Both the position numbers and the translations under genes were made by a program. Source: a virus. Taken from it: a DNA stretch of 64,000 bases. The notes under the pieces are model-generated. The model saw only the letters and a list, made by a program, of their open reading frames with translations, was not told the origin of the DNA and made no database searches. Where the stretch lies: IMG/VR virus record IMGVR_UViG_3300044638_004201, positions 1 through 64,000 of that record; one strand, given 5' to 3'. Positions 7,979 to 31,114 of this stretch are shown here, in pieces (positions within the stretch are counted from its first letter, which is position 1; every line of letters begins with the position of its first letter).

Positions 7979-8700
7979 CTAGACTGTCCTAACGGATAGT
8001 CTAGTAAAAGAACTTACATTTGTCAAATCCAAAAAGCGGCCTGGGGAAAGCCCGCGCCTATATATGCCTAACGGATAGCAAAAAGTAAAAGCGGCGTGCG
8101 CCAATAAGCGGCGAGCGCAAAGCGCTGGATATATAACGGGTGCTGCCTGGATCGCAGATCCGACTAACGGGTACCAGAGTTGTCTGTAGTTGCACCAGGA
8201 AGACCGTTGATAACCGTCACGGTATGTTAGGGTTCGTACAAGGTTAGTTCTAAGACTGTACGTATAACGGATGGACTCAGTCGGAGTTTGAACGTTTGAA
8301 CGTAGCCCCTAAAAGTTCAGAACGTTTGAACGTTTGAACGGCTGCCTGGTGATCGAATTTAACAACCAACAACTTCTCCACTTTAACGTCCGCCGCCTCC
8401 TCCAGAACCAGAACCACCGCCTCCGCCGCCTGGTTGCATCTTTCATAAGTTGTTTATAGTTTGACAGCGGCCAGGGCCCATGAGCAAAAAGTAAAAACGG
8501 TGACGGATCTGCTGTGGACTTCTAGAGTTGTTTGTAGTTTGGACCAGGCGGCCCGCTGCCAGACACCTCCAGACACTTGAGCGTGTCGGCTTGACAACGG
8601 AGGGGTTTCGATACTAAACTCGCTTTGCGGCTTTAGCCGCAAAGTCAAACACGAACAACTCAACAACTTTTCGAAGCGGCCCGCGCTTAGCGGCGAGCCC
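7979..8700. repeat. Non-coding repeat-rich junction (candidate origin, terminus or injection-stop region)
   Basis: CCTAACGGATAG x2, TAACGG repeats, tandem GAACGTTT units at 8287-8340, CCGCC tracts, copies of motifs A and B. Confidence 0.7.
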
Positions 8701-8736
8701 TTGACACATTGATAACGGGTGTGTAATCTGTAGATT

Positions 8737-8916
8737 ATGTTAATAGAACTTTTTATAGCGGCCCGCCTAAACAGTGCTGCGAAATCCCTTAAGCAGAGTG
8801 AACCGCTGTCCTTTTCTGAGCAGACGCTTGCAAACATCCTTGACGACTGGTATTTGAAATTAGTTGACCGTGGTGAAGAACGGCGTGCCCTAAAAGCAGA
8901 ACTTGACAAGGAATAA
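8737..8916 (+). CDS. 59-aa hypothetical protein (leaderless)
   Basis: MLIELFIAARLNSAAKSLKQ...AELDKE; ATG 7 nt after TAATCT -10; not in track. Confidence 0.6.
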   Translation: MLIELFIAARLNSAAKSLKQSEPLSFSEQTLANILDDWYLKLVDRGEERRALKAELDKE

Positions 8917-8981
8917 CAGTAGGGGTAGCGTTGTTGTAAGGACCGTAGTAACGGATGAGACCTATAGAGAAAAGAGACGAA

Positions 8982-9167
8982 ATGAAAAAAGTATTAGCGG
9001 TGCTGTTGATTTCAGCAGTATCAACATTGGTGGTTCCAGCAAGTGCTCAAGCAAGTGACCCAACCCCACCCGCTGAGTGGAAGATGCCAGCAACCAGCAA
9101 GTACATGAAGTACAAGGGAATGGATTGTTGGAAGTGGTGGCGAATCACCAAGTGTCTTCCAAAGTAA
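8982..9167 (+). CDS. Small secreted protein
   Basis: MKKVLAVLLISAVSTLVVPASAQA signal peptide; two Cys. Confidence 0.65.
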   Translation: MKKVLAVLLISAVSTLVVPASAQASDPTPPAEWKMPATSKYMKYKGMDCWKWWRITKCLPK

Positions 9168-9205
9168 AACTTGACAATCTAGATTTACTATGTTTTAATT
9201 AGTTT

Positions 9206-9284
9206 TGTTCGGAAGGCAGAAACCTGATGCGGGATGATGTAGAGGGGTGCGGACCTAGGCCAAAAACCCAGTTCCTTCCGAACA
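9206..9284 (+). ncRNA. Structured 5' leader RNA (copy 1)
   Basis: 11-bp closing stem TGTTCGGAAGG/CCTTCCGAACA starting at the predicted TSS. Confidence 0.5.
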
Positions 9285-9306
9285 CCTAAAAGACAAAGGA
9301 GACAGG

Positions 9307-9483
9307 ATGTCTACAAAAGTAAAGATGGCAGTTATTCCCCAATGCGACATCTGCCAAAACGAAATCGCAAAGTATGACGCAATGACAACACGAGGACCTT
9401 GGGCTTACCAATGCGAAGGTTGCTTCGCTGACTATGGCGTAGGGCTTGGACTTGGCAAGGGTCAAGAATTGGTGGTGGCGTAA
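9307..9483 (+). CDS. 58-aa zinc-finger protein
   Basis: CDIC...YDAMTTRGPWAYQCEGCF...GLGLGKGQ; AAAGGAG RBS; not in track. Confidence 0.75.
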   Translation: MSTKVKMAVIPQCDICQNEIAKYDAMTTRGPWAYQCEGCFADYGVGLGLGKGQELVVA

Positions 9484-9740
9484 TGAAGGCACGAGAGTTA
9501 GTAGACCAACTACAGAAGTATGACCCTGATGAAGAAGTCATTGCTTTAGTTTGGTTCAAAGATACATTTGATTTTGATAACAATGACGACCTCACCCTTA
9601 CTGATGAGGCATGGCTTAAAGTCGTGAAAGAGATGGAAGAGTCTGGCGGGATTGATTCAGGCGAGCAACAAATCTCTGAGCACATTTCAGAATCAGTAGT
9701 TGAACATTCAACCATAAACATAAAAGCAGAGGAGAAATAA
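9483..9740 (+). CDS. Hypothetical protein, paralog of 17183..17431
   Basis: MKxxxLxxQLQxYxPDxExIxxxWxKxT...LTDxxWLxVV shared by both. Confidence 0.75.
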   Translation: MKARELVDQLQKYDPDEEVIALVWFKDTFDFDNNDDLTLTDEAWLKVVKEMEESGGIDSGEQQISEHISESVVEHSTINIKAEEK

Positions 9741-9741
9741 G

Positions 9742-10131
9742 ATGGGTCAATATCACATCCTTGTCAATGTAGACAAGAAAGAAACTGTTGTGCCTCACGG
9801 GCTCGGCTTGGGTCTAAAGCAATACGAACACATTGGCGAGTTCAACGGCACGCTCGCAGATGCCATGTACATTTTAATGATGACCAGTCCAGCCAGAGGC
9901 GGTGGAGACTTCCCATCTACAAACATCTCTAGCCGTTGGGCTGGCGACAGAGTTCTAGTTCTTGGAGACTACACGGAAGATTCCGATGTGCCGTCTATCC
10001 CTAATGTCGGCTCGCTCTATGCGGAGTCTGAGTCCTACACGGACATAACGGATTTGGTTGCCGAAGCCTTTGAGCAAGTGTTCCGATTAAAGTTTTCAGG
10101 CGAGGGTTGGAAGAAACGGGTTTCTGTGTAA
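9742..10131 (+). CDS. Conserved phage hypothetical protein
   Basis: MGQYH..VN.DKKE...RWAGDRV..LGDY pattern; RBS. Confidence 0.75.
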   Translation: MGQYHILVNVDKKETVVPHGLGLGLKQYEHIGEFNGTLADAMYILMMTSPARGGGDFPSTNISSRWAGDRVLVLGDYTEDSDVPSIPNVGSLYAESESYTDITDLVAEAFEQVFRLKFSGEGWKKRVSV

Positions 10132-10407
10132 TACTCTCTATACAAACGGCGAGCGCTTTAAGTTCCGTGCAGTGATACGGGCAAGCGCTCGCTTTTGTAT
10201 TTAACGGCAAGCCCACATCGTGAAACAGAACCCGCTGTCAATCTAAATAAGTTGTTCCGATGTGCACCAGAAGATCCGTGCATTTTTACTTTTTGCTCAG
10301 ATCCGGCGTTCGGGCTTGCTGCACTACAAACAACTTCTTGATGTCCGCCCGATAAGTTGCTACTTCCTACGCTTGACAAAAAGAACGGCGTGCTCTATGA
10401 TACGGGT

Positions 10408-10557
10408 ATGAAAAAGAGAAACCCACTTGACGGCTTGCTTCGCTTGCGAGGTCGCTTCGTGCTGAACCAAAAAGCACAGGTGTTTGCGGATAAGCGGTCT
10501 AAGAGAAACAAAAGTCGTGCCGAACAAAAACGGCGTGCCCTAAACGAACAGGAGTAA
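10408..10557 (+). CDS. Small basic protein (leaderless)
   Basis: MKKRNPLDG...DKRSKRNKSRAEQKRRAL; ATG 6 nt after TATGAT. Confidence 0.6.
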   Translation: MKKRNPLDGLLRLRGRFVLNQKAQVFADKRSKRNKSRAEQKRRALNEQE

Positions 10558-10564
10558 AAAGTAA

Positions 10565-10810
10565 ATGACGAAAGACACAACGGAACAACGCTGGAATCAG
10601 GGATACTACTCAGCACTCAACGGGGCGAAGATTATCAACTTCGTAGGAACAGATGAGGACGAGTTTGGTGGAACTGGCTTTCCTAAGTTCTTGGCACAAC
10701 TTTCTAATGGCGAAATTGTAGAACTTGTTTTATCCCAAGACCCTGAAGGTAATGGTGGTGGATTTATGTTTGGACTTCCTGATTTTACTTTACCTGAGTT
10801 TCGCAAATAA
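10565..10810 (+). CDS. Hypothetical protein
   Basis: SQDPEGNGGGF motif; RBS. Confidence 0.7.
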   Translation: MTKDTTEQRWNQGYYSALNGAKIINFVGTDEDEFGGTGFPKFLAQLSNGEIVELVLSQDPEGNGGGFMFGLPDFTLPEFRK

Positions 10811-10868
10811 ACTTGACAAAGGAATAAAAAAGAGTAGTATGTAGTTGTCTTCATAGAAAGGGGAACAA

Positions 10869-11543
10869 ATGCCAAACTGGGTATTTAATCATCTGACCAT
10901 AGAAGGTTCAGAGGAAGACATAGCAAAAGTAAAGGCTCAACTCAATAAACCATTTACAAAACAATTCAGCGAGGAAAAAGACCCAGCAGTTTATTCCAAT
11001 CCTGTAATTGCGTTTTGGAACATTGTTGCGCCACCTGAGGACAAACTAGAAGAATACTTTGGTGTTCATGGATACGCTGATGGTGGAAAGCAAGGCGATA
11101 CTGAATACAACTGGTATAACTTCAATAACACTAAGTGGGGAACTAAGTGGGACATTGGCGTTGTTGATGGAGAAGGTTATTCAGAAACTTCTTTAGAAGA
11201 TGATGAACCAACTCATTTACGCTATCGCTTTGATACTGCGTGGTCTCCACCAACTCCAGCAATTCAAGAACTATCAAGTCAATACCCTGAACTGACAATA
11301 ACTCTTTCTTACGAAGAAGAGGGAGAGTGGGGTGGCGAGATTGAGTATCTTGCTGGCGAAGAAGTGAGTGTTGATGAATACGACTCTCCAGACTCTCATA
11401 AAGATTATGTGGATAGAGATAGAGAAGATAGTTGTGTCTGCTCTCGTGAAGAAGATAAAAGCGAGTGGTATGACGATTGCCCCGGTGCTAAAGGAAAAAC
11501 AATAACTCTAAAAGCAGTAAAAGAAATGGAGATAGTCAAATGA
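10869..11543 (+). CDS. DUF1281/YubB ferredoxin-like domain protein
   Basis: MPNWxxNxL, WGTKWD, FDTAWSPP, YPELxIxLxYEE. Confidence 0.8.
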   Translation: MPNWVFNHLTIEGSEEDIAKVKAQLNKPFTKQFSEEKDPAVYSNPVIAFWNIVAPPEDKLEEYFGVHGYADGGKQGDTEYNWYNFNNTKWGTKWDIGVVDGEGYSETSLEDDEPTHLRYRFDTAWSPPTPAIQELSSQYPELTITLSYEEEGEWGGEIEYLAGEEVSVDEYDSPDSHKDYVDRDREDSCVCSREEDKSEWYDDCPGAKGKTITLKAVKEMEIVK

Positions 11544-11680
11544 GTAATGATGTGGCTTGGCAATCAACTCTCACAGAAGAAATGATTGCCCACCTGAGCG
11601 AACAAGAAATAAGTTTGCTTATCAACTCCCTCAATGAGTCAGTAGAAGAAATCTGCAACATCTACGAAGTCAAGGGATAA
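11540..11680 (+). CDS. 46-aa acidic hypothetical protein
   Basis: ATGA overlap with GGAG RBS; not in track. Confidence 0.6.
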   Translation: MSNDVAWQSTLTEEMIAHLSEQEISLLINSLNESVEEICNIYEVKG

Positions 11681-11689
11681 AAAGTAAAA

Positions 11690-11890
11690 ATGGGAAAACT
11701 TATTTCAATAGAACCAACCACAGACAACTCAACTACCTACTTTGCTCTGGACGGAAATTATGGCGAAGCGCAAGGCATGGTTGTCATTGACACGACCAAA
11801 TGGTCTGAGGACGATTGGACTCAGATTGACGAAGCAGGAGACTCAGACAGGGCGCAGGTTGCTCTTGATTTGACAAACAAATACGCTTAG
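11690..11890 (+). CDS. Hypothetical acidic protein
   Basis: ORF; start embedded in motif A. Confidence 0.65.
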   Translation: MGKLISIEPTTDNSTTYFALDGNYGEAQGMVVIDTTKWSEDDWTQIDEAGDSDRAQVALDLTNKYA

Positions 11891-11930
11891 TGTATTGTAA
11901 TTCTTACACCTACTAGAAAGGGGAAACCAA

Positions 11931-12290
11931 GTGGGAGACAGATTCGTAGTTGGATTTCAGGATAAGCCTGAAAACCCAATCCTCTATCTTTACTCACATT
12001 GGGGTGGCGAAGCACAAGAAAAAATCTTGGCTGAGGCACTCAACAAATCACAAGGTCGCTGGAACGATTCAGATTATGGAACTCGCATAGTCGTATCACA
12101 AATCATTGGCGATAGTTGGAAAGACAATCTAGGATTCGGTCTTTCTGTCAATAACTTCGCTATGCCTGACTACGACACAATTCAAGTCGTAGAGTGGCAC
12201 TCTCAATCAGTATCCACACGCCAAGCCTCTGCGCCTAGCGTAGAACTAGAAAACACACCCTTTGAGCATTACTGCCTAGAAAGGGTATAA
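11931..12290 (+). CDS. Conserved phage hypothetical protein
   Basis: MGDR...LYLYSHWGG...RWND.DY.TRI; own promoter and RBS. Confidence 0.75.
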   Translation: MGDRFVVGFQDKPENPILYLYSHWGGEAQEKILAEALNKSQGRWNDSDYGTRIVVSQIIGDSWKDNLGFGLSVNNFAMPDYDTIQVVEWHSQSVSTRQASAPSVELENTPFEHYCLERV

Positions 12291-12390
12291 GACACGCCAT
12301 AAGTGGGGGGCAACCCAAACTTGACAAAAGCCCCCCACCTATGGAATACTTCGTAATAGCAAGACCAACACTAGACAAGGAGAAATACAA

Positions 12391-12846
12391 ATGTTGGACA
12401 AAGAAAAGAAGGTTCAAGGTATAGCAATCTATGCCGAGTTCCGTAAGCCCGGTGAGACTATGCAAATAGTTATCACACCTGACGCCTACACGACTTCAGG
12501 AAGTCTTATTCCTATGACTATGGTTCGTAGAATTGTAACTAAAATTACGCCAAAGAAACAATGGAAAATTACTTCTTTCAGAGATAACCTCAGCGAAATG
12601 GTTTCTAAAGGTGAATTGGTCGCAGATAGCGACAAGGAAACTTTCACAGAGACTCGTATGCGCTACGCAACTTCCTACTTTGACTTAGTAATAAATCAAG
12701 GTTGGGAACTAGAAAAAAAGCCAATCTTGCTAGAGACTTCTCGCCACGACGCAGATGATTTAGCAAAAGGCAAAACACCTAATAAATTACTTTACAGGGC
12801 GCACATCTCTAGGAAAGCACTTGGCTTCCCTGAGTTGTCAGCGTAA
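12391..12846 (+). CDS. Hypothetical protein upstream of MoxR
   Basis: Own promoter and AAGGAG RBS. Confidence 0.7.
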   Translation: MLDKEKKVQGIAIYAEFRKPGETMQIVITPDAYTTSGSLIPMTMVRRIVTKITPKKQWKITSFRDNLSEMVSKGELVADSDKETFTETRMRYATSYFDLVINQGWELEKKPILLETSRHDADDLAKGKTPNKLLYRAHISRKALGFPELSA

Positions 12847-12863
12847 GAAAAGGGGAAAATAAA

Positions 12864-13919
12864 ATGGAAACTATGAAAGAGCGTTATGCTTCACTTAGTC
12901 CAAATCTCACACCTACATTGTGGGAAATGATTATTGAAGTTGCCACACAGGGAGTAAATGAAAATGCTTCACTTACACTCAACGCAAGCGTTGCCCCACA
13001 GGGTCGCTATGTTGAAAGAGCGATTGGTTCAGAGCGTGCGCCAAGAAACTCCAAACTGAAAATGGAACTTCCAAATGTTGAAGGACTTATTGGTGCGGAA
13101 ACTTACCTGCGTCCAAATGGTTCTGCCTACCACGCTCGTATGTGGGGAGAACACAAAGATGTGGAAGCCCTACGCAAAGCACGAGAAGCAACAACTCAAT
13201 CTGTTCTTACAGGTGTTGGTTCTCCAATGTTCCCACTTCTTTATGGTGCGCCGGGGTGCGGAAAAACTGCGCTAGTTGAAGCGTCTTATGGAAATGAAGT
13301 TATTACTCTTATGGGTAATGGCGACATTGAAGCCTCTGACCTAATTGGTTCTTATGTCCAAACTCCAAGTGGAAACTTTGAGTGGATTGACGGCGGACTA
13401 ATTCGGGCTATGGAAAATGGTTGGGTTTATTTCATTGACGAAATTGGTCTGATTGACCCAAAGGTTCTCGCACTTGTTTATGGTGCTATGGACGGACGCC
13501 GAGAAATTGTTATCACTACAAACCCTGAGAGAGGTGTTGTCAAGGCACACGAAAACTTCTTCGTAGTTGCAGCGACAAATCCAAATGCTCCCGGAGTTCG
13601 TCTAAGTGAAGCGTTAGTATCTCGCTTTACTGTTCAGGCAGAAATGACAACTGATTGGGCACTTGCTCGTAAGTTAGGTGTGCCAACACTTTTGGTAACT
13701 TCTGCTCAAAATCTTTATCGCAAACAACTTGCTAGAGAAGGTGTTTCTTGGTCTCCACAAATGCGAGAACTTCTTGCGTTTAGAGACATAGCAATAACTT
13801 TCGGAACTTCGTTTGCGCTTTCCAACCTGATTGCTTCTGCCCCTGAAAACGATAGGGCAGTTGTCGCAGATGTTTTGTCTCGTGCCTTCGGGGAAGAGAT
13901 GAAACCAGCCAAAATCTAA
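12864..13919 (+). CDS. MoxR-family AAA+ ATPase (CbbQ/NorQ/CobS-like)
   Basis: Walker A GAPGCGKT, DLIG, Walker B YFIDEI, AATNP, ALVSRF. Confidence 0.9.
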   Translation: METMKERYASLSPNLTPTLWEMIIEVATQGVNENASLTLNASVAPQGRYVERAIGSERAPRNSKLKMELPNVEGLIGAETYLRPNGSAYHARMWGEHKDVEALRKAREATTQSVLTGVGSPMFPLLYGAPGCGKTALVEASYGNEVITLMGNGDIEASDLIGSYVQTPSGNFEWIDGGLIRAMENGWVYFIDEIGLIDPKVLALVYGAMDGRREIVITTNPERGVVKAHENFFVVAATNPNAPGVRLSEALVSRFTVQAEMTTDWALARKLGVPTLLVTSAQNLYRKQLAREGVSWSPQMRELLAFRDIAITFGTSFALSNLIASAPENDRAVVADVLSRAFGEEMKPAKI

Positions 13920-14002
13920 GTATCCCTGTCCTTAGGTTTTGGTTCGGGGAGTTGGGGATTGAGCGTGGTTCATTGGGTGTCCTTCGCTCTCCCCAACACC
14001 CC
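13909..14002 (+). ncRNA. Double hairpin with pyrimidine-rich anti-SD-like loops
   Basis: Stems 13909-13942 (loop TATCCCTGTC) and 13946-14002 (loop ...TCATTGGGTGTCCTT). Confidence 0.45.
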
Positions 14003-14083
14003 ACCTTTAGATTTGACAAGGAAAAGCAAAAAGTGTAGTATCTAATTGTTAGGTCGGAAGCCTGACAGAAAAGGGGAAATAAA

Positions 14084-15862
14084 ATGGCTCATCTAAAAAT
14101 GGGTGAAACCAAAGCACAGGCTACTCCTGTTGAGTGGCTCAAAGTTGGTAGAGACATTGGCTACATGGCTAACAAGTGGTCTCTACGAGATGATTTAGTT
14201 GCGTATGTTGGTCCGGGTGCTGGTGGTCCGGCACCTGCGTGCTACTCACCTACACAAGCAGAAGTTGAAGTAAATGTTGATGTTGCGTTTGCTAAAGGTA
14301 TTACACCTGAGGAAATTGGCGACATAACACTTCGCAAAACACAATACGAGTTTCCTAAGGCGACAGGTGCGATTATGCACGAAGCCTTCCACGCTCGCTT
14401 CTCACAATGGTCTATGCCTAAGGCGTATGAGGAATTAGAGAAGGACGAATACAACGCACTTATTCTTTTAGAGGAAAGTCGCATTGAGTATCAAGGTGTC
14501 AAGTCTCTATCTATCGCTCGTCCTTTCCTTCGTGCTTGCGCTATGGAAATTGTTATTGGCGATACAAAAGAAGGTATGGAAAACGAAACACAAACACAAT
14601 CGCTAACTAATTTAGTTGGTCTTGTCTTTGCTCGCATTGACGCAGGTATCTTAGATGAACACGAAGTCTTTGCGATTACAGAAATGATTACAGACCAACT
14701 TGGTGTAGATGTTGTTGAGCAACTACGAACAATCGCTCGTTCAGCACAAATGCACGACAACCACAAAGACGCCACAGAACTTTATCCACTAGCAAAAGAG
14801 TGGGCACGAATTGTTCGTGAAACTGCTAAAGAGCGTGGAGATGAACAAAAGCCTGAAGGTAACAAAGGTATTCCTTCTGAAATCATGGAAGCAATCATGG
14901 AAGCGTTGTCTGAGGCTTCAGATGAAGTAATGGCAAACAACTTCTCCGACTTGGGCGACCAAGAGCAGGGTGAGGACATGAGAGAGGAAGTCAAGGCAAA
15001 AGCCTCTGACGCACAAGAGCAAAACGAAAATCGTGAAATTGCTAATCAAGTGTTCTCTAAATCTTCAGGGCCGGGGCAATCAAAAACCAATAGCAAGTTG
15101 ATTGAACAACGCCAACCAACAAGTGAAGAACTATCTGCCTCTGTTCGTATTGGACAATGGTTAGAGAAAGCAAAGTATCGTGAGCGAGATGAACTACAAA
15201 TCGCAAGCGTGCTTCCACCCGGACGCCTTCGCACTAGAGCAATCGTCCAAAATGCAGCCTTGAAATCTCGTGGAGTAAATCAGCGAGTAGAGCCTTTCCG
15301 TAGAACTGTTCGCAAACACACAGACGACCCAACACTCAATGTTGGAATTATGGTCGACATTTCAGGTTCAATGGGAAGTGCTATGAACCCTATGGCTACA
15401 ACTGCGTGGGTAATGGCTAACGCAGTAAATCGTATTCAAGGAAACTGCGCTATGGTCTATTACGGAAATGATGTGTTCCCAACTCTAAAGGTTGGACAAA
15501 AACTTTCTGAAGTAAATGTTTATTCTGCTTCGGACGGAACTGAGAAGTTTAGTAAAGCGTTCTCAGCATTGGAAGGCGCACTTAACTTACTTCACGGAAA
15601 TGGCGCAAAGTTGTTGGTAATTGTTTCGGACGGAGAATACACTTCAGATGAAACAAGAAATGCCAAAGAGATTGTTGCCAAATGTAAAGAGGCAGGTGTC
15701 GCAATTTTATGGCTACCTTTTGATAATGGCAGAAGTGCGAAAGCGATTGGTGGAGATTATGCCGAAGTTGTTTTGGACATAAGCCGACCTGCGGAAGCCT
15801 CTGAAATTATTGGTCGTTCAGCAGAAAAAGTAATGACGAGAATTGGGCAACGAGTGGCGTAA
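14084..15862 (+). CDS. vWA-domain protein with N-terminal HExxH metallopeptidase-like domain (CobT-like MoxR partner)
   Basis: HEAFH, LEESRIE, MIDAS DISGSM, IVSDG. Confidence 0.88.
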   Translation: MAHLKMGETKAQATPVEWLKVGRDIGYMANKWSLRDDLVAYVGPGAGGPAPACYSPTQAEVEVNVDVAFAKGITPEEIGDITLRKTQYEFPKATGAIMHEAFHARFSQWSMPKAYEELEKDEYNALILLEESRIEYQGVKSLSIARPFLRACAMEIVIGDTKEGMENETQTQSLTNLVGLVFARIDAGILDEHEVFAITEMITDQLGVDVVEQLRTIARSAQMHDNHKDATELYPLAKEWARIVRETAKERGDEQKPEGNKGIPSEIMEAIMEALSEASDEVMANNFSDLGDQEQGEDMREEVKAKASDAQEQNENREIANQVFSKSSGPGQSKTNSKLIEQRQPTSEELSASVRIGQWLEKAKYRERDELQIASVLPPGRLRTRAIVQNAALKSRGVNQRVEPFRRTVRKHTDDPTLNVGIMVDISGSMGSAMNPMATTAWVMANAVNRIQGNCAMVYYGNDVFPTLKVGQKLSEVNVYSASDGTEKFSKAFSALEGALNLLHGNGAKLLVIVSDGEYTSDETRNAKEIVAKCKEAGVAILWLPFDNGRSAKAIGGDYAEVVLDISRPAEASEIIGRSAEKVMTRIGQRVA

Positions 15863-15883
15863 GTCGTTCTTGCTCAAAAAGAA

Positions 15884-23291: not shown

Positions 23292-23367
23292 AAAATAATC
23301 CATTGAGAAATGCCTACCTCAATCGTCATAAGAGGTAGAGGGAAAAACAGAAAGGAGGAAAGCCTCA

Positions 23368-23994: not shown

Positions 23995-24215
23995 AGCCCA
24001 ACAGATTTTAGAGAAGCCCCCGTTGATGCGGGGGTTTTTTCTTTGGCAACTATAAACAACTTGGTCAAATCGAGGGCCCGGTGGTGCATTAGCAAAAAGT
24101 AAAAACTCTCCTTCAGATCCGCTGCAAGTAAAAACAACTTGGGTTGTTTGCTGAAGGGACTTGACAAATGTCAGGAAGGTTTGATAGTATGTGGATACCT
24201 AAGAAGGGGGAACTT

Positions 24216-24449
24216 ATGTTTAGAGATTGGCTATTCGGTGATTTCAAATACGCATACCGAACAACGAAGGTAGAGAAGATTATCTATAAGAAAATCGCTT
24301 TAGTAGTTATTGCGGTTCTGTTCATTATGATAATGATTGACGCCTCTGCTCTAGGTCTTGTTCTGTTCTTTGGTCTTGGCTGGTATGCCAAGCAAAAGTA
24401 TGACTTGAAAAAGAAAGTAGTGCGTAAGCGCAAGAAAAAAGTTTCATAA
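24216..24449 (+). CDS. Small membrane protein with basic tail
   Basis: Two hydrophobic segments; KKKVVRKRKKK. Confidence 0.65.
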   Translation: MFRDWLFGDFKYAYRTTKVEKIIYKKIALVVIAVLFIMIMIDASALGLVLFFGLGWYAKQKYDLKKKVVRKRKKKVS

Positions 24450-24508
24450 GCCGATTTGACAAATGTCAGGAAGGTATGATAAACTCTCCATAGAAAGGGG
24501 AAATACAA

Positions 24509-25042
24509 ATGAACACTTCTCCACAAGATGAAGCACTAGAACTACTAGAAACAAAAATAGCACCACGCTCTTATACGATTGACTATCCAAAAGAATTGTG
24601 GTCTGAGTTATTGCCCGGCTTATGGCAGGGTGGAACTGATGATGACGACATTTATGACCAACTAGCAACGCCAGCAATTACAAAAAAGAACTTTGATTTT
24701 GTGATTACAGCCTACGCTTGGGCTAATCCTGTTGATTGGTTTGTCAAGGAAATCCGTTTCGGATTTTATGACAGCGACATGGCAGACTTTGACCCAAATG
24801 ATTTACAAGGAATTGTTCGTATGGCTCACGCAGAGTGGAAGCGAGGACAGCGTGTCCTTATTCGTTGCCAAGCAGGTATGAACCGAAGTGGTCTAATTAT
24901 GGCTCTAGTCCTTATTCGTGAGGGCTACACGCCACAAGAAGCGATTGACTTGATACGGGCTAAGAGAAGCAAGCACGCCTTGTTCAATGGTCGCTTTGAG
25001 AAGTGGCTGAGTGAAGTTGATGTTTCGGCGTGGAGAAACTAA
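24509..25042 (+). CDS. Dual-specificity/tyrosine protein phosphatase
   Basis: CX5R loop VLIRCQAGMNRSG, upstream FYD, AIDLIRAKR. Confidence 0.88.
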   Translation: MNTSPQDEALELLETKIAPRSYTIDYPKELWSELLPGLWQGGTDDDDIYDQLATPAITKKNFDFVITAYAWANPVDWFVKEIRFGFYDSDMADFDPNDLQGIVRMAHAEWKRGQRVLIRCQAGMNRSGLIMALVLIREGYTPQEAIDLIRAKRSKHALFNGRFEKWLSEVDVSAWRN

Positions 25043-25139
25043 GACACGCCGAAAGTCAGGAAGGTTTGACAAAAGGTCAGGAAGGCTGTAATCTTAGGGT
25101 ATTGACTAGGAAAGTCAATAGAAAAGGGAGAAAGACAAA

Positions 25140-26073
25140 ATGAAAACAGAAGCAAAGTTTATTAGACGCAGAATTGCCGTTGGACTTATTTTGCTTGCTT
25201 TGTTCGCTTGGGCTCTTGACGCTACTACACCTGAGATGTGTAAAGTGCCGACAGAACAAATGAATCAATTTTGTTTAGACCTGTTGTATCCATAATAACT
25301 AAAGGGGGTAGTAATAATGTCAGGTTGGAGAACTAAAAAAGCAAATGCTTTAGCAAAAAGAGAAGCCTCTTTTATCAAAAGCAGAGAAAGACTTAGCACA
25401 CCTCGTGCGGAGTTTTTACTAAAGTTTGCTTTTATGAGTGATGAGCAGTTTGAGAAATGGTCTGAACTAAAGACAAGTGCCGAAGCAAGAGCCTTTATGG
25501 AAGCACTACCAATGCCTCAAATAAAAACAAATGAAGTGTTTATCAAACTAGACAAAGAAGAAAGATAGGGAAAAAGTAAAAATGAAGAAATGTATAAATG
25601 CTACTTGCGAAAGCACGGAGTTAGTTTATTCAGGCGTAGATGCGTTCTTGCTTGGTGGTATTGAAACAGAGAAGTGGTGCTACACCTGCGCCAATGCGAT
25701 TGCTTTATCTAACAGGAAGGAAGAATCAAATGTTGCTTGATAATGGAACAATGTTCGCAATAATTATTGCGCTTGCGGGTTCATGCTTTGTTATGGTTGT
25801 TGGTATCAGAGCGCAAGGTAAGTTGATACGGGAGAACAACAGACTTCGTAAAGAACTAACTGAACTTCACTACGAGAAGGTGAAGGGAGGAATCTAATGG
25901 AAGAAACTAATGTAATGCTTGACCCAATGGATTGCGGTCTTGCCTGTCAGTTTGAGTGGATAGAAGTATCATCAAACTTCTTCAGCGTTGCTGTCTATAC
26001 ACCTGCGTTGATAGTTGGTGTGCTTTCTTATTTCATCTACAAAGCGATAAAAAAGAAGAAACGAAAGGCGTAA
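25140..26073 (+). CDS. Run of five small genes (25140-25295, 25317-25568, 25582-25740, 25730-25897, 25897-26073), several membrane or Cys-containing
   Basis: Manual translation; RBS and overlaps. Confidence 0.55.
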
Positions 26074-26080
26074 TTCAGAA

Positions 26081-26284
26081 GTGGCAAAAAGTAAAAAGAT
26101 AGAGATTGATGCTGCAAAGTTATACAACTCTGGTCTTGCCATAGATGATGTGGCTGAAGAACTTGGTGTCTGTTATAGGACAGCGAGGAAAGCGATTCGT
26201 AGTAGTGGAGTTGTTTTGAGAGACCCTTCAGCCCGTCTCAGAGGTAGAACTAGCCCTAAAAGAAAGAAGGCAGGAAATGAATAA
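26081..26284 (+). CDS. Helix-turn-helix DNA-binding protein
   Basis: LYNSGLAIDDVAEELGVCYRTARKAIRSSGVVLR. Confidence 0.8.
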   Translation: MAKSKKIEIDAAKLYNSGLAIDDVAEELGVCYRTARKAIRSSGVVLRDPSARLRGRTSPKRKKAGNE

Positions 26285-26470
26285 TCTCAATGTAGTTTGG
26301 TCTGCGGTAGTTGCCAGCGTGGCATCTGCGCTCGCTGTTGTAATGGCTATCTGGGGAGACTCAGATGTGTCCTTAGCCCTCGGCGCTGTGGCGATTACTT
26401 CGGCTGTTCTGTCCATAAGGGAGAAACCTTAGGACTTGATTTCCTGTCAATAGTATGACATAATGAAGTT

Positions 26471-26525
26471 GGACTAGAGGCTCTCTGACACAAACCTTCC
26501 CCCGTCAGAGGGTCTCTATTCTTTT
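26471..26525 (+). ncRNA. Stand-alone hairpin sRNA with C-rich loop
   Basis: TTGATT-17-CATAAT promoter, 15-bp stem, loop ACAAACCTTCCCCC, U-tract; no ORF. Confidence 0.55.
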
Positions 26526-26585
26526 GGCGTGTCGCTTGACAAAGAACTTGGACTATTGTATTGTTGTCTATGAAAGGGGAAGAAA

Positions 26586-26702
26586 ATGACAAAAACCAAG
26601 AAAAAACAAATCATTTACATAGCCTGTTGGAAGTGCGGTAGCCAGTTTTCCCTGTATGAAAACGACTACAACCACGGGGCTTGTTGCGGAAAGTGCCTGT
26701 AA
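26586..26702 (+). CDS. 38-aa zinc-ribbon peptide
   Basis: CWKC...CGKC; own promoter and RBS; not in track. Confidence 0.55.
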   Translation: MTKTKKKQIIYIACWKCGSQFSLYENDYNHGACCGKCL

Positions 26703-26886
26703 AAGGCTACCTTCCTGACTTTCCTGTGATAGAGTATTACCTATGAACGACATACGACCTAACGACAAACTTAGGAAAGGTAAGTAATACCTGTCTCCCC
26801 AATGAGGGTGGCTCGGTTGGCTTAGTCAGCAACCCAACTGCGGTTTATACAACGCAGAGTCCATGTCCCCAAACAAAGGAAAATCA

Positions 26887-27519
26887 ATGCAGAAAACTAA
26901 GAGCAGAGTTGTCGAACAAATCTTGAGCGTATTGCTTTCGGTTGGAGTTATTTCGACTTTCTCTACCTATGTTCAAGCGTCCAACGCAGACGAACAAAAA
27001 GTAAAAACTGTTGTCGAAGTGCAGCAGCAACAGCAAGAAAAGAAAACCTACGAACAACTTATCGAGGCTGAAATCGTCGCCCATAAGGAAAAAATCAAGG
27101 CTCTACAACTCCAGAGGTTTGCTGACCAGCGAACCACCTTCACGGACGAAGAACTCGCTCAACTGCTCTATGCCGTTGGGTTTGAGGGCAAAGCCCTAAA
27201 GGTCGCTTGGGCTGTTGTGAAGAAGGAGTCTAATGGTCGCCCTATTGCCTTCAATGGCAATACAAGAACAGGCGACTCTTCATACGGAATCTTCCAGATT
27301 AATATGATTGGCGGACTAGGAGTAGACCGCCGAGAAAAGTTTGACCTCAAATCAAATGCGGAACTATTCAACCCAGTAGTCAATGCTGAGATTGCTTATC
27401 ACATGAGTAATGGTGGCGAAAAATGGGAGGCTTGGAAAGTTGGTAGCGGGTATAATGGTGTAGACCAAGAACGCTATGAATCTTGGCTCAAGAAGTTTCC
27501 CGAAGGAGTAACCCCTTGA
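26887..27519 (+). CDS. Membrane-anchored lytic transglycosylase (SLT/lysozyme-like)
   Basis: N-terminal TM, coiled coil, KKESNG, SYGIFQIN, LFNPVVNA, WEAW. Confidence 0.85.
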   Translation: MQKTKSRVVEQILSVLLSVGVISTFSTYVQASNADEQKVKTVVEVQQQQQEKKTYEQLIEAEIVAHKEKIKALQLQRFADQRTTFTDEELAQLLYAVGFEGKALKVAWAVVKKESNGRPIAFNGNTRTGDSSYGIFQINMIGGLGVDRREKFDLKSNAELFNPVVNAEIAYHMSNGGEKWEAWKVGSGYNGVDQERYESWLKKFPEGVTP

Positions 27520-27995
27520 TAGAGAACGCCAAAGAACCTGAGGTCTCAGAGCCAACACCCGTGCTTGAGAGTGCGGAAGTTGTCCCTACATTTGCCCCAC
27601 CAGCGCAACCCGAACCCGTGTGGACAGAGCCAGAAACTCTAGAAGCAGAAGTTGTTGAAGAAGTTGTTGCTGTTGCTGCACCTGTCGAAGAGGCAAAAAG
27701 TAAAAATGATGCACCAGCCCCGTCAAAACTTGCTGCATCTAAAAAAGTTGTTTCGTTGTCGAACCTTGTTTTCGAGTCGAAATCCAGAAATTCTGCATCA
27801 GTTGGTTTGGTGCAATTCCGTCTTGTCGAACTCGGCTTTCTCGATGCGGGTAGTGACAAGTTTGGTTGGCTAAGTGCAGGGACTATGAAGTCTCTCGCTC
27901 AGTTTGCTAAGACTTCGGTAGAAAAAGTCAATGCTCAGGACGAGAAACTAATCTCTTGTTTGTTCGAAGGGACTTCAGTAGAAGTCACTAACTAA
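27516..27995 (+). CDS. Protein with low-complexity N-terminus and peptidoglycan-binding-like C-terminal domain
   Basis: SVGLVQFRLVELGF...G.....T..SLAQF; start codon uncertain. Confidence 0.55.
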   Translation: MIENAKEPEVSEPTPVLESAEVVPTFAPPAQPEPVWTEPETLEAEVVEEVVAVAAPVEEAKSKNDAPAPSKLAASKKVVSLSNLVFESKSRNSASVGLVQFRLVELGFLDAGSDKFGWLSAGTMKSLAQFAKTSVEKVNAQDEKLISCLFEGTSVEVTN

Positions 27996-28159: not shown

Positions 28160-28825
28160 TTAGACTGTGCTTCTGTTTTTGTGTAGAACGGGCTTGTAGG
28201 AAGAAGATTTTCCTAGTGTAGTTGTGCGGTATCCATACCGAACCAAGCGGAAAGCAAGTGCCGAAGTAGTTACTCCTAATAACTTTGCCAAGCGATAGAG
28301 AGTAACTTTTTGTTCGTTGTGTGCTTGATTGAGTAGGTAGGTGTATTCCTCAGCCTCAGCGCGAAAGCGAGGGCTGTTTGCTCTTACCTGCTGTGCGTAG
28401 GGTTGAAGTTCCTTCAGCCTTGCCAGTAGTTCAGGTGTAGGCATTACATAACGAGATTGCCCTACCTTTGGTGCGTGCTTTGGAACGGGTGGAACAAATA
28501 GCGTTGGCGGAACGCCTGTGCTAGTGTGAGAGTTTAGAATTACTCTAATCATCTGCGGAGATAATTTAGACGCTCTCGCTACGGACGCTTGTGTCCAGCC
28601 AGCACCTACTAACGCCACTACATAATCGTTTCTCATTTTTTTATCTAGTGGGCTTGTCAGCATAGAAAAAGCCACAACCACATTTTCAGGTAGTTGTAGT
28701 TTTGCTATTTTGTTCTGCCCTGCCCTGCGATAGAAAGTAGGTCTTTCTGTTCTAATTGCGTAGCGTGCCCCGTGAGCCTTTTCTAGTTGGCCGGGGTTAG
28801 TGCGGAAGTTGATTGCGGTTGTCAT
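28160..28825 (-). CDS. Double-HTH DNA-binding protein, paralog of 31115..31615
   Basis: GWTQASVARAS and VTLYRLAKLLGVT HTH segments joined by a Pro-rich linker. Confidence 0.75.
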   Translation of the reverse strand: MTTAINFRTNPGQLEKAHGARYAIRTERPTFYRRAGQNKIAKLQLPENVVVAFSMLTSPLDKKMRNDYVVALVGAGWTQASVARASKLSPQMIRVILNSHTSTGVPPTLFVPPVPKHAPKVGQSRYVMPTPELLARLKELQPYAQQVRANSPRFRAEAEEYTYLLNQAHNEQKVTLYRLAKLLGVTTSALAFRLVRYGYRTTTLGKSSSYKPVLHKNRSTV

Positions 28826-28842
28826 TTTGTCCTTTGTTTGAG

Positions 28843-29178
28843 TTAGTCAATACGGAGAAACTCACGAAGTTGTTTCGCGGTTTCATCATTGAGTCCTAGC
28901 GTTTCGCCTTCCTCACCTGTGCCACCTGTGAAGATTACATCTCCACAAATAAAGTCAGTAAGTCCGAAATACTTTTCCCATAAGAAAGTTGCCATAGGGT
29001 TGATTGGCAACCCATAAAGTTTTCCTTCTTCATTTACCCAGATTGTCAAGTCTGCGGTGAAGTCTATCGCTTGAACAAGTCCGCCTACGGCAGATTGAAG
29101 TTGCTCTAGTTGAGAACCTTCATCTGCTAGTTGGACTTCCTCTGCTTGTCCTTCAGCATTTAGTTTGATAGCAAGCAT
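28843..29178 (-). CDS. DUF3846 domain protein
   Basis: LQSAVGG.VQ...VNEEGKL.GLPIN..AT...ICGDVIF. Confidence 0.8.
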   Translation of the reverse strand: MLAIKLNAEGQAEEVQLADEGSQLEQLQSAVGGLVQAIDFTADLTIWVNEEGKLYGLPINPMATFLWEKYFGLTDFICGDVIFTGGTGEEGETLGLNDETAKQLREFLRID

Positions 29179-29239
29179 TTTATTTCCTTTCTGTTTGATA
29201 AGTGTAAGGCTAGACCATAGGAATAGCCCTTGTCAAGTT

Positions 29240-29413
29240 TTATTTATAAATTACTTTGTGCGTTGCTTTTATTGCTTTTACTACGACCCAAGAGAATAAT
29301 TTACCAATTATTTCTGCTTGCTCGTCATAACTAACAATAGGTGCTTTACGCTTTGGCTTGCGGTGTAGGCGTTTGTAAGTTCCTACTATTGCGCTATCAG
29401 GTAGTCCTCGCAT
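29240..29413 (-). CDS. 57-aa basic protein
   Basis: MRGLPDSAIVGTYKRLHRKPKRKAP...; own promoter and RBS; not in track. Confidence 0.65.
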   Translation of the reverse strand: MRGLPDSAIVGTYKRLHRKPKRKAPIVSYDEQAEIIGKLFSWVVVKAIKATHKVIYK

Positions 29414-29631
29414 TTTCTTTCCTTTCCCTTGTCTTAGTGATAATACTATGGCATAGCCTTACGCTTGTCAAGTCTTTAGGGTGTGTTTTAGGACACATTT
29501 AGTCTAGGGTTTAGAACGCTGTGTGCGGATAGTCTGCGAAAGTTGTTTGTAGAAGTAGAACCGGTTAGCCAGATTTTTACTTTTTGGCTACCTTCGCCAG
29601 AAAAAAACCCCCTTTCGGGGGCTTTTAGTTT

Positions 29632-29874
29632 TTAGACTAGGGTTAGCGAGGCTTCGCTTTCCCTTTGTCTTGATACCTGTAAGCGGTATTCAAGTCTGCT
29701 CTCTGGGCGATTTATGGCTTTTTGGCAACCTGTCCAGTCTGTGTGCGCTAGTGCCATAGTCTCTGCGCCTTTTTGTTTATGGACTAGTGCGGTGTAATCC
29801 TCGTTGCTCATAATCTCTACCGAGCAGGAATAGCAGACCTTTCCAAGTCCTACTACTTTCTTTTTGTTTTTCAT
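29632..29874 (-). CDS. Small CxxC protein
   Basis: Own promoter, RBS and terminator. Confidence 0.7.
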   Translation of the reverse strand: MKNKKKVVGLGKVCYSCSVEIMSNEDYTALVHKQKGAETMALAHTDWTGCQKAINRPESRLEYRLQVSRQRESEASLTLV

Positions 29875-30008
29875 CTTTCCCCCTTGTTTGTGCTTATAAG
29901 ATAAGCCTATGCTAGTGTCTTACGCTTGTCAAGTCTTTAGGGTGTGTTTCCTATCACATCTTTAGGGCAAAAGAAAAACCCCCCTTGCGGGGGGCTTCTC
30001 TGTAAGTT

Positions 30009-30167
30009 TTAGTTAGTTGCCCAGAAGTTTTCTACTGCGAAGTTCTCAGGCTTGGACGCCTTGCGCTTTGGCTTGCTCACCTTGCGGGCTTCCATAATCC
30101 ATAGGATGATGAGAGGTGTGTTTAGAAGTAGTGCGCCTGCGATAATCTGAAGTAGTGCTGTTGTCAT
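30009..30167 (-). CDS. 52-aa membrane peptide
   Basis: MTTALLQIIAGALLLNTPLIILWIMEARKVSKPKRKAS...; own promoter and terminator; not in track. Confidence 0.65.
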   Translation of the reverse strand: MTTALLQIIAGALLLNTPLIILWIMEARKVSKPKRKASKPENFAVENFWATN

Positions 30168-30316
30168 TTTATTTCCCCTTGTCTGTAAGCACTCTCTGTG
30201 CTTATGAGATAAGACTATGATACTGTTCCACGCTTGTCAAGCCCTAAAAGGCAGATGACTGGTCATACTTTTGGCAACAAAAAAGCCCCCTTGCGGGGGC
30301 TTCCTTGCCTAGTTTA

Positions 30317-30538
30317 TTAGACTAGAGATAGGGCTGGCTTTGGGTGGTTGAGGACAATAGCCAAGATTTCCTCAGCGTTTAGCATACGGGCTTCCTTGCC
30401 GTAGCCTTCTTCCATAACAATTACCTCAGTAATTGGTGCGGTGGTGTTGAGTAGCAAGTCTCTAACCTGTGCGGTGGTATCTACTACGAAGTTGTAGTTA
30501 TGTCCTTCAGTTGTAATGCTTACCCCGTGTTGTGTCAT
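30317..30538 (-). CDS. Hypothetical protein
   Basis: Own promoter, RBS and terminator. Confidence 0.7.
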   Translation of the reverse strand: MTQHGVSITTEGHNYNFVVDTTAQVRDLLLNTTAPITEVIVMEEGYGKEARMLNAEEILAIVLNHPKPALSLV

Positions 30539-31114
30539 TTCTTTTCCTGTCTTTTCGTGTAGCCCCTTTGACTACATACCTAACACTAGAACACGCCTAG
30601 ACTATTGTCAAGTATTGTCCTAGTCTTTGTTAGTGTTTTGTATCACACCTTTAGACAAGAGCCTAGCCCCCTTGTTATCTAATCGTTATCAAAAGCCTTG
30701 ACACTTAGCCCCCTTATGTCTAAGACACTAGCCAAGTTGTTTGTAAGTTAGTCAGCCGGAGAGATGACCAAGTGATAACACTAGACACTAGAGAAAGTTT
30801 AGAAAATAAAATAAATAATAATTGTTTGTAAGTTTTTAGAGACAAGAACGCCTCAATAAAAGTCTTATAGCCCAAATAAATAAATAAAATAATAAAAAAA
30901 GATTACCTAAGACTTCAGAACCTAAGAAAAAAATAAAAAGTTGTCTGTAGTTTATTTTTATCCGGAAACGATTTGGAAAAGTGTTAATACTATGCAGAGC
31001 CTTGTCACAGGCCAAAACCAAAATATGGAAAGGTTCATATATTCGTCTTTGTCGTCCAATGATTTTGCTGCTTTAGTCTTGTACGGCATCTAAAAAACCC
31101 TGTAGGATAGGGGT

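Follow-up and report, generated by a model that had tools for sequence, protein, structure and literature searches.

Phages T5 and BF23 are restricted solely through sites that lie in their first-step-transfer DNA (PMC10644984), and in the Autographiviridae only motifs in the early-injected region determine restriction sensitivity; according to the latter study, location-aware avoidance analyses had not been done (PMC12455610). The leading region of conjugative plasmids, which is first into the recipient and bears anti-defence genes, is depleted of 4-8 bp palindromes in some plasmid groups (bioRxiv 10.1101/2025.04.03.647016). The vulnerability of first-entering DNA is thus a known principle in T5/BF23, in T7-like phages and in the leading regions of plasmids; the extent seen in the locus described here is far greater.

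The window analysed is a stretch of 64,000 nucleotides (positions 1 to 64,000 of IMG/VR record IMGVR_UViG_3300044638_004201) that was found only in lake-water metagenomes. A megablast search of its purged block and virion genes against 50,697 phage records gave no matches, and the lineage is known through protein similarity alone; its source is probably a large siphovirus, of about 130-160 kb, infecting freshwater Actinobacteria. The purge spans ~20.6 kb of early genes between ~10.3 and 31.0 kb. The reading that we favour, at slightly better than an even chance, is that this block is an early module inside a terminal repeat of ~24 kb and is unprotected before early products act. Selection has stripped nearly all short type II restriction palindromes from its genes and intergenic DNA. 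This DNA would probably sit unprotected in the cell until early products shield or admit the remainder of the genome. The block would then be functionally like T5 first-step-transfer DNA, without homology to it.

The likeness to T5 and BF23 lies in a long direct terminal repeat with small early genes under the host polymerase, and the non-coding stop region at one end of the T5 repeat may have counterparts here in candidate non-coding regions at 7.8-8.9 and 30.6-31.1 kb. However, the first-step-transfer repeat of T5 and BF23 measures about 9.7-10.2 kb as against the ~24 kb proposed here, and our phage belongs to another virion lineage (actinophage siphovirus). No homologs of T5 pre-early proteins were found at E<=0.01 when 12 proteins, A1, A2 and dmp included, were searched by tblastn against genomes G000-G005. 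T5 is almost unpurged, with an observed/expected ratio of four-letter palindromes of 0.84 versus 0.94, whereas the same comparison in this phage gives 0.32 versus 0.58, and several words are missing entirely. Two-step transfer, a property of T5, is a prediction for the present phage. The sensitivity of T7-like phages (Autographiviridae; Marinomonas Murciavirus) to restriction likewise depends solely on recognition motifs in the DNA that enters first, but in Murciavirus these are Type I motifs over a few kb, with a 532-nt repeat and polymerase-driven entry, in contrast to the ~20.6 kb purged of Type II-like palindromes here. Plasmid leading regions differ in their single-stranded entry by conjugation and in a modest depletion confined to certain groups.

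The depletion was evaluated against a null in which synonymous codons were shuffled within each gene (300 shuffles), preserving protein sequence and codon usage. Observed versus expected counts in block genes were 0 versus 65 for AGCT, 0 versus 44 for ACGT, 0 versus 41 for GTAC, 0 versus 38 for GATC, 0 versus 19 for CCWGG, 3 versus 50 for ATAT, 3 versus 28.5 for GGCC, 5 versus 38 for CGCG and 10 versus 69 for TTAA, the last four being 7- to 17-fold below the codon-preserving null. Thirteen of the 16 four-letter palindromes were depleted, and for 13 palindromes the observed counts were reached by none of the 300 shuffles. When the 136 four-letter word classes were ranked, the lowest 13 were all palindromes; palindromes had a median observed/expected ratio of 0.22, as against 1.03 in the 120 classes that are not palindromic. 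Non-coding DNA of the block was purged too (4 sites versus 44.9 expected). These data support a depletion that is regional, palindrome-specific and maintained by selection. The preliminary description had listed GATC within 8.6-31 kb at 10273, 10300 and 24116 and nowhere else, a single CCWGG at 21926 and no ACGT, with all three words present on both flanks. The recount reproduced every position, the ACGT gap running from 8387 to 31711 with zero sites, and showed the three words to be common on both flanks, and the codon-aware analysis revealed a regional loss far beyond chance that is broader and stronger than had been stated. Mutational or compositional drift was rejected as a cause, since GC content and codon usage barely differ between compartments, and so was hairpin avoidance, since 4-bp palindromes form no hairpins.

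The limits of the clean core are 10,337-30,927. On the left the purge sets in gradually across 8.6-10.3 kb, and on the right it stops abruptly at 30,962-31,010. The parts of the locus are listed in Table 1.

Table 1. Features of the purged block and its surroundings, in window coordinates.
Feature	Position	Strand	Remarks
Small membrane-protein-like gene	6504..6781	+	Sits on proposed left repeat boundary; homologs in G001 and G003
Gene 1, 310 aa	6883..7815	+	Unpurged; homologous to first gene of 8 cultured phages
GC-rich, repeat-dense, palindrome-rich spacer, probably non-coding	7816..8950		Sequence repeats
Transitional segment, sites thinned but present	8447..10336		Four small early genes at 8955-10131
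Purged core, ~40 small early genes	10337..27995	+	Most with own TTGACA-type promoter
Purged core, 6 small genes	28160..30538	-	5 near-consensus promoters
Right composite motif copy, compartment end	30928..30951		Inverted relative to copy at 10283-10336
Conserved non-coding boundary element	30955..31100		At sharp right boundary
Start of late (virion) operon: four small genes, then portal	31115..34407	+	Ordinary site density resumes

The spacer contains five copies of GAACGTTT together with copies of AAGAACGGCGAGCGCTAA-like and TAACGG motifs, and the palindrome ratio at its position is 1.0-1.5 across ~58 related lineages; it may act as an inner stop signal, an origin or a packaging region. The transitional segment is flanked by inverted copies of a composite motif, formed by the 12-mer AAAAAGTAAAAA and the 14-mer ACTACAAACAACTT; the complementarity between inverted repeats I3 and I13 is 100%. 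On the plus strand the core encodes a DUF1281_C protein, a MoxR-like AAA_5 ATPase, a dual-specificity phosphatase and an SLT transglycosylase, with weak, sub-threshold matches to a VWA-like protein and an HslV/proteasome-like protein. Its minus-strand genes include a DUF3846 protein and an HTH protein (weak, sub-threshold HTH_3 match) homologous to gene 49 of Microbacterium phage Pumpernickel, which lies inside the terminal repeat of that phage. An AT-rich tract at 30.8-30.95 kb lies near the right boundary, and the boundary element itself may be the end of the repeat, a terminase site or a control region of the late operon.

That the block is an early-type array, as had been proposed, is borne out by ~25 host-type promoters close to the TTGACA consensus, each of which serves a single small gene or a few of them. 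The argument rests on an explicit listing of the form cTTGACAa-N16-18-TAnnnT ahead of small genes and not on a generic promoter scan, which was only modestly above shuffles (36 versus 27.7). The block at 10.3-31.0 kb would accordingly be read by host polymerase as an early module. The match between compartment edges and the edges of this early transcription module could also be taken to mean that there is no staged entry and that selection guards the early expression units only, cuts elsewhere being tolerated through early products (end protection, ligation, recombination) or a fast shut-off of restriction. We consider this quite unlikely: within the block the purge is as strong between genes as inside them, gene 1 and the early-type genes at 8.9-10.1 kb are incompletely purged, and a single double-strand break within a unique late gene is as a rule fatal.

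Outside the block, avoidance takes a narrower form. The flanks hold 0 AGCT versus 257 expected, 5 CCGG versus 49 and 33 GATC versus 154, a set nested in that of the block, and the rest of the genome probably avoids this subset only. The strong avoidance of these three words in the flanks implies that any later protection is incomplete. A flip in Pro-Gly codons at the boundaries had also been described, and it is real: all ten listed sites in the block use CCC (6) or CCG (4) and none CCA or CCT, whereas the flanks use CCA (34) or CCT (32) and never CCC or CCG. It does not reflect a general change in codon usage, however. The flip is forced, because CCN-GGN necessarily makes either CCWGG or CCGG, and the only change is in this trade-off: the block concedes CCGG and the flanks concede CCWGG. 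Outside Pro-Gly codons, CCGG occurs 3 times in the block versus 12.7 expected.

The compartment recurs in relatives. Of ~58 related lake-phage lineages, roughly half show a purge of the syntenic block, and the words removed are particular to each lineage. The block is also purged in G001, G002/G005 and G003, with differing word sets, and that of lineage L156 lacks 14 of the 16 four-letter palindromes altogether. Close relatives that have diverged by 6-10% carry 8 block sites versus 59.6 +/- 7.2 under random substitution. A block that is purged across lineages with differing words and kept clean in close relatives speaks for ongoing selection and against a foreign module. The boundaries are sharp and CCGG occurs in the block while being near-absent from the flanks, as would be expected of a recently acquired module (mosaicism) or an assembly chimera carrying the avoidance history of another host. 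Such an origin is nevertheless barely credible and is largely refuted: codon usage is near-identical in both compartments, Pro-Gly codons fully account for the CCGG excess, the word set of the flanks is nested within that of the block, synteny and compartment are kept across many lineages and cultured relatives, and purifying selection still acts on the block. Furthermore, metagenome contigs cross the left edge and contigs of close IMG/VR relatives cross the right edge.

The cultured actinophages compared (Microbacterium phages Pumpernickel, Zooman, Cece, Big4 and A3Wally and Arthrobacter phage Racecar) share with this phage a homologous portal, capsid, tail, gene 1 and boundary element, and the same order of gene 1, small-gene array, late operon, portal and giant protein. 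They differ in having a terminase gene beside the portal, which is elsewhere in this phage's clade, a GC content of 58% and repeats that are unpurged of palindromes; a regional purge was absent both from Pumpernickel, the repeat-bearing cultured relative, and from MAG DSL-LC01. In Pumpernickel the syntenic array falls within a direct terminal repeat whose copies are identical over 19,963 bp, a length measured directly from the sequence, and in Zooman the array forms such an exact repeat of 17,079 bp; a literature search on the repeat of Pumpernickel yielded no relevant paper. In 8 of 8 cultured Microbacterium/Arthrobacter phages the first gene is the gene 1 homolog, which each record contains in two copies and whose start lies 48-281 bp inside the left physical end. 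The boundary element aligns to Pumpernickel positions 19,930-20,040, straddling the repeat end at 19,963, with a local score of 49 (null 23.3 +/- 4.0, maximum 37). The best match in Zooman is in the same intergenic region, ~155 bp off the repeat end. More than 50 relatives match the element at 70-93% identity and 45 columns are invariant among 13 diverged phages; no conserved RNA structure was found in it, and an Rfam search of the window gave no matches. G003 carries the element elsewhere in its contig.

Contig depth, taken at the left boundary in four lake metagenomes from contigs and not raw reads, rose 2.2-2.8-fold at 6.5-6.75 kb in three of them (X1, 8.0 to 17.6; X3, 16.1 to 45.1; X9, 12.9 to 30), the step in the remaining run being only ~1.2-fold as against more than 2-fold in some runs. 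Three runs share a contig end at 6518, and step and shared break (6518-6752) lie 130-365 bp upstream of gene 1. The step could reflect co-occurring strains sharing the module instead of a repeat, and the shared break suggests an assembly-graph branch. The contig joints in the metagenomes are short skips typical of related strains, without pile-ups. The contig ends of relatives are also concentrated immediately upstream of gene 1 and around 30.75-31.4 kb; we discounted this clustering because short contigs picked for the query gene bias it and an AT-rich tract is nearby. Taken with homology, depth makes a direct terminal repeat of ~24 kb, from about 6.5 to 31.0 kb, most likely, and the purged block would make up the larger part of it. 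The earlier suggestion of a long terminal repeat thus fits the direct repeats of cultured relatives and the ~2-fold rise in depth, but its left end had probably been misplaced: the terminus expected at 8.0-8.7 kb most likely lies at ~6.5-6.8 kb instead.

Over its initial 2-3.8 kb (gene 1 and spacer) the proposed repeat is palindrome-rich and unpurged. If the block is unprotected first-entering DNA, then either the right end must enter first or the leader must be shielded. Staged, T5-like entry and its direction are inferences. In the preferred geometry the last-packaged, right copy of the repeat would enter first, with the end at ~31.0 kb leading, and the palindrome-rich spacer at 7.8-8.9 kb would be the pause point. 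That the block is a true first-step-transfer segment in a non-T5 lineage, with the right end of the ~24-kb repeat leading and a pause at the spacer, itself conserved, we propose tentatively, as a possibility that falls short of probable. An unlikely alternative is that the left end enters first from ~6.5 kb, in T5 or T7 geometry, and pauses near the 31.0 kb element. Rightward host RNA polymerase from promoters at 8.5-26.5 kb would help pull the array in, and the leading 2-3.8 kb with its many sites would have to be protected, perhaps inside the ejection channel or by ejected virion proteins. This geometry agrees with the T5 record, in which the stop signal is at the inner end of the repeat, with the direction of genes from 8.9 to 28 kb, nearly all of which point away from the 6.5-kb end, with the conserved non-coding element and AT-rich tract at 30.6-31.1 kb, and with a giant virion protein of 3136 aa that has an exonuclease domain and is encoded beside the portal. 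However, it would place dense ACGT, CCWGG and GATC sites in the earliest DNA to enter, the leading DNA is palindrome-enriched in nearly all lineages, and shielding is an ad hoc assumption.

The search for GATC or CCWGG methyltransferases that the preliminary description had called for found none, including in a complete relative of 160.7 kb. DNA methyltransferases of families PF00145, PF01555 and PF02086 are absent from G000, G002, G003 (complete) and G005, and self-methylation therefore does not explain the tolerance of CCWGG or ATAT in the flanks; G001 has two N6/N4 DNA methyltransferases. Known anti-restriction genes were not recognised in the block, nor were nuclease genes. The latter result bears on the possibility that the selective agent is a degradation of host DNA, run or unleashed by the phage. 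As in T5, host DNA would be broken down at a time when the first DNA alone has entered, and that DNA would need to be free of the short palindromes cut by the nuclease or nucleases. Although a few restriction systems would not easily account for 14 of 16 palindromes at zero in some lineages, and T5 does degrade host DNA during its first-step-transfer stage, we judge this very unlikely indeed: besides the lack of a recognised nuclease in the block, word sets vary between close lineages, as varied host restriction systems predict, and the flanks share the same type of avoidance in weaker form.

The rule that only first-entering DNA need be site-free has so far rested on few laboratory phages and single sites. 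Here it appears to be written into ~20.6 kb, more strongly than in T5, in a pattern of sharp edges, two tiers and a codon-level trade-off that recurs in dozens of uncultured lineages. If our reading is true, the block would supply a list of candidate early anti-restriction genes, unassigned to family. The word sets of the lineages would document, from sequence alone, which restriction specificities uncultured freshwater Actinobacteria possess, including some such as ATAT, for which we know of no restriction enzyme, and would show indirectly which of them predominate in hosts that resist cultivation. The purge would also provide a computational marker for terminal repeats and staged entry, making staged DNA entry readable from genomes alone across hundreds of uncultured phages.

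Tabulation of the sixteen 4-letter palindromes in 2-kb bins divides the contig into two compartments, an early-gene block of about 10.3 to 31.0 kb (the purged core) and its flanks. AGCT has no copy across the entire 73.8-kb contig, with ~320 expected in genes. CCGG is nearly missing outside 10,303-30,962, and inside these limits ACGT, ATAT, GTAC, GATC, GGCC, CGCG and CCWGG are nearly gone. The preliminary description had reported a ~22-kb region purged of GATC, CCWGG and ACGT, and every site position it gave proved exact on recount. The depletion also stands against a codon-aware null, built by shuffling synonymous codons gene by gene with each protein and each gene's codon usage kept constant; none of the 300 shuffles reached counts this low. 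Observed and expected counts in block genes were 0 and 44 for ACGT, 3 and 50 for ATAT, 0 and 41 for GTAC, 0 and 38 for GATC, 3 and 28.5 for GGCC, 5 and 38 for CGCG, 0 and 19 for CCWGG, 0 and 65 for AGCT, 10 and 69 for TTAA, 17 and 57 for TATA, and 17 and 48 for TCGA. Site depletion in the block is thus confirmed and highly significant.

The depletion falls on palindromes as a class. The lowest 13 of the 136 four-letter classes in the block are all palindromes (median observed/expected ratio 0.22 vs 1.03 for other classes), as are the lowest 11 in the flanks (0.53 vs 1.02). CTAG and GCGC are the only palindromes not depleted in the block. For the eight main words, 4 sites lie in the non-coding DNA of the block, where the density in flank non-coding DNA would predict 44.9. 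Since non-coding DNA is purged as strongly as genes, selection acts on the DNA itself, not on proteins or mRNAs. That the selective agent is a nuclease induced by the phage seems very improbable.

Pro-Gly pairs reveal how the two compartments are related. Because Pro-Gly is written CCN-GGN, either CCWGG or CCSGG, which includes CCGG, is unavoidable. The block uses CCC or CCG in 10 of 10 pairs and the flanks CCA or CCT in 66 of 66, so that the synonymous switch described earlier holds for these pairs; it does not extend to a wider codon change, codon usage being otherwise nearly alike on both sides. CCGG looked at first like an exception, present in the block and missing from the flanks. Outside Pro-Gly pairs, however, the block has only 3 copies vs 12.7 expected, so that both compartments avoid CCGG: to lose CCWGG the block gives up CCGG avoidance, and the flanks do the reverse. 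Flank avoidance (observed/expected AGCT 0/257, CCGG 5/49, GATC 33/154, several others about 2-fold) involves a subset of the words avoided in the block. These nested sets fit one genome under the same selection at two intensities. They misfit a foreign module, and a mosaic origin of the block is extremely doubtful.

The window takes in positions 1-64,000 of an IMG/VR virus contig of 73,789 bp (CheckV completeness 55%). Among its products are a class II ribonucleotide reductase, a portal, a protease-related protein of 1579 aa, a major capsid protein and a tape measure. The portal shares 73% identity with its counterpart in the lake metagenome-assembled genome 'Actinomycetia phage DSL-LC01' and 46-62% with those of cultured Microbacterium and Arthrobacter siphoviruses with genomes of 186-194 kb, and no fewer than 19 metagenome runs from lakes or freshwater contain the sequence. 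Portal similarity and habitat together identify the virus as a large siphovirus of freshwater Actinobacteria. In DSL-LC01 and the cultured relatives the large terminase gene adjoins the portal; here there is none beside the portal (28000-32640), and the gene is missing from the contig, itself incomplete. In two long relatives, G001 and G003, it lies distant from the portal on the opposite strand (64.9-66.3 kb and 85.3-86.7 kb, oriented).

Portal relatives in IMG/VR numbered 419, of which five long contigs were taken whole. G001 (125 kb) lacks AGCT, GATC and TCGA genome-wide, and its block has also lost ACGT, ATAT, GGCC, TTAA and most TGCA. Neither G002 and G005 nor G003 (160.7 kb, rated complete) lacks any palindrome genome-wide; the block has lost ACGT, AGCT, GGCC, GTAC and CCWGG, with ATAT retained, in G002 and G005, and ACGT, CATG, GTAC, GATC and GGCC in G003. 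In all fetched relatives the block is purged of CCWGG and CCSGG is elevated there, so that the codon flip is conserved. DSL-LC01 (129 kb; OQ999401) has ATAT and TTAA at 0 genome-wide and no regional purge. Of ~58 loci containing gene 1, about half show the same drop, which sets in 2-3 kb past that gene; no avoidance whatever is seen in the others, most of which are higher in GC. Over the 7 kb downstream of gene 1 in five related loci (L132, L140, L153, L156 and L159), CTAG is always and TATA usually spared, even where the other 14 palindromes are at or near zero, and CTAG is, if anything, elevated in the block; in L156 all 14 are at zero, leaving CTAG (30) and TATA (11). Close relatives, 6-10% diverged, differ by 516 substitutions in 8.3 kb of block and have 8 sites vs 59.6 ± 7.2 from random substitutions. 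The purge is therefore maintained at present, and each lineage follows a word set of its own.

The preliminary description took the block for first-injected DNA, possibly a long terminal repeat. Microbacterium phage Pumpernickel has the gene order seen here, and in its record the plus-strand small-gene array forms an exact direct terminal repeat of 19,963 bp, with genes 1-52 recurring as 302-353; the repeat of Zooman is 17,079 bp. Two landmarks can be transferred. On the left, gene 1 has homologs in eight of eight cultured relatives; these begin at a distance of 48-281 bp from the left physical end, and each record contains two copies. On the right lies a non-coding boundary element; 13 diverged phages share 45 invariant columns in it, and a search for RNA structure found none. 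Its top local alignment against 50 kb of Pumpernickel scores 49 (null 23.3 ± 4.0, maximum 37) and spans 19,930-20,040, across the repeat boundary at 19,963; the best match in Zooman is in the corresponding intergenic region, yet 155 bp from the boundary. In G003 the best match and three of four small late genes sit at one contig end (2285-5163, oriented), distant from portal and purged block, which points to rearrangement or a second copy.

Contig depth (Logan contigs, four lake metagenomes; whole-contig means on the left side) rises exactly at the left end predicted by gene 1 homology, from 8.0 to 17.6 in run X1, 16.1 to 45.1 in X3, 12.9 to 30 in X9 and 6.3 to 7.3 in X6. Contigs from three of the four runs stop at 6518, and raised depth continues to at least 20 kb. 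Depth in X1, X3 and X9 falls gradually between 6.7 and 20 kb (e.g., 45 to 29, 17.6 to 13.8), unlike the flat depth that a simple 2x repeat predicts. Strains carrying a shared module could also produce the step and the common contig break. Together, gene 1 homology, the boundary element and depth place a repeat of ~24 kb at ~6.5-31.0 kb. Homology and depth thus support, short of proof, that the block belongs to such a repeat, the left end of which would fall near 6.5 kb, not at the 8.0-8.7 kb proposed earlier.

Features of the proposed repeat and its surroundings
Feature	Position	Strand	Remarks
Gene 1	6883-7815	+	left landmark; homologs in eight cultured relatives
DUF1281_C protein	10869-11543	+	core product
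DUF3846 protein	28843-29178	-	core product
Boundary element	30,955-31,100		right landmark; non-coding; conserved in >50 relatives
3136-aa protein	35323-44733	+	between portal and protease; RNase_T (DEDDh) exonuclease domain, weak PI3/4-kinase-like match; candidate ejected polyvalent protein
12-mer AAAAAGTAAAAA	6872, 10284(-), 11679, 16462, 17172, 18369, 25571, 27695, others		abuts ATG of many early genes, gene 1 included
Composite 12-mer/14-mer element	8447-8545, 10283-10336, 30928-30951		inverted copies

The purged core equals the proposed repeat less its left 2-3.8 kb. In this left part a gene for a small membrane protein and gene 1 precede a repeat-dense spacer of 1.1 kb, after which comes a short transitional segment. 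In nearly all lineages gene 1 and the spacer have a palindrome ratio of 1.0-1.5 vs ~0.7 in ordinary flank. The transitional segment (8.5-10.3 kb) and the core (10.3-30.9 kb) each lie between inverted copies of the composite element, and the few residual core sites (GATC 24116, CCWGG 21926, GGCC/CCGG 24075-24078) adjoin such elements. Copies of the 12-mer lie almost all within 6.8-31 kb; their position at start codons suggests a shared translation leader or regulator site, and elsewhere they are paired with ACTACAAACAACTT, ~30-40 nt apart. Near-consensus TTGACA promoters number ~25 in the core, and each serves a single small gene or a few. Few products are recognisable: a MoxR-like AAA_5 ATPase, a dual-specificity phosphatase, an SLT transglycosylase, weak sub-threshold matches to VWA-like, proteasome/HslV-like and HTH proteins, and members of the DUF1281_C (Api92-like) and DUF3846 families, which on plasmids and conjugative elements are found next to anti-restriction genes. 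Among the block proteins none was recognised as a known anti-restriction product. The preliminary description had suggested looking for GATC or CCWGG methyltransferases; a search of the present contig for DNA methyltransferases (PF00145, PF01555, PF02086) returned none.

The principle involved is already known from T5/BF23, in which the only sites that expose the phage to restriction are those in the first-step-transfer DNA, within the terminal repeat (PMC10644984), and from T7-like phages, which obey the rule that only first-entering sites matter (PMC12455610); leading regions of conjugative plasmids show a milder version of site depletion (bioRxiv 10.1101/2025.04.03.647016). Location-aware avoidance analyses were lacking, according to the authors of PMC12455610, and our literature search found no description of a purge of the present strength, breadth and two-tier structure spread over an uncultured clade. 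A search for homology to T5 pre-early genes found none. T5 first-step DNA shows almost no purge of 4-letter palindromes (observed/expected 0.84 vs 0.94 in the remainder of its genome, sampled at 60-100 kb), whereas the same measure gives 0.32 vs 0.58 in the present phage.

If a genome enters all at once, a cut is equally lethal at any position. A region of far stronger avoidance with sharp limits therefore implies that the remaining DNA is protected in time or space. There is good support for restriction avoidance limited to the early block. That gene units are protected in the absence of staged entry is distinctly unlikely, the intergenic DNA being purged too. Entry in the T5 geometry, left end first with a stop at the conserved element near 31.0 kb, would require shielding of the site-rich leader, and we consider it unlikely. 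Staged entry is the best explanation, although an inference, and we prefer the opposite polarity, in which the right repeat copy, packaged last, would exit the capsid first. The DNA would then end physically at the sharp edge near 31.0 kb, the minus-strand block and its five strong promoters would be first into the cell, and the palindrome-rich spacer may serve as the inner stop.
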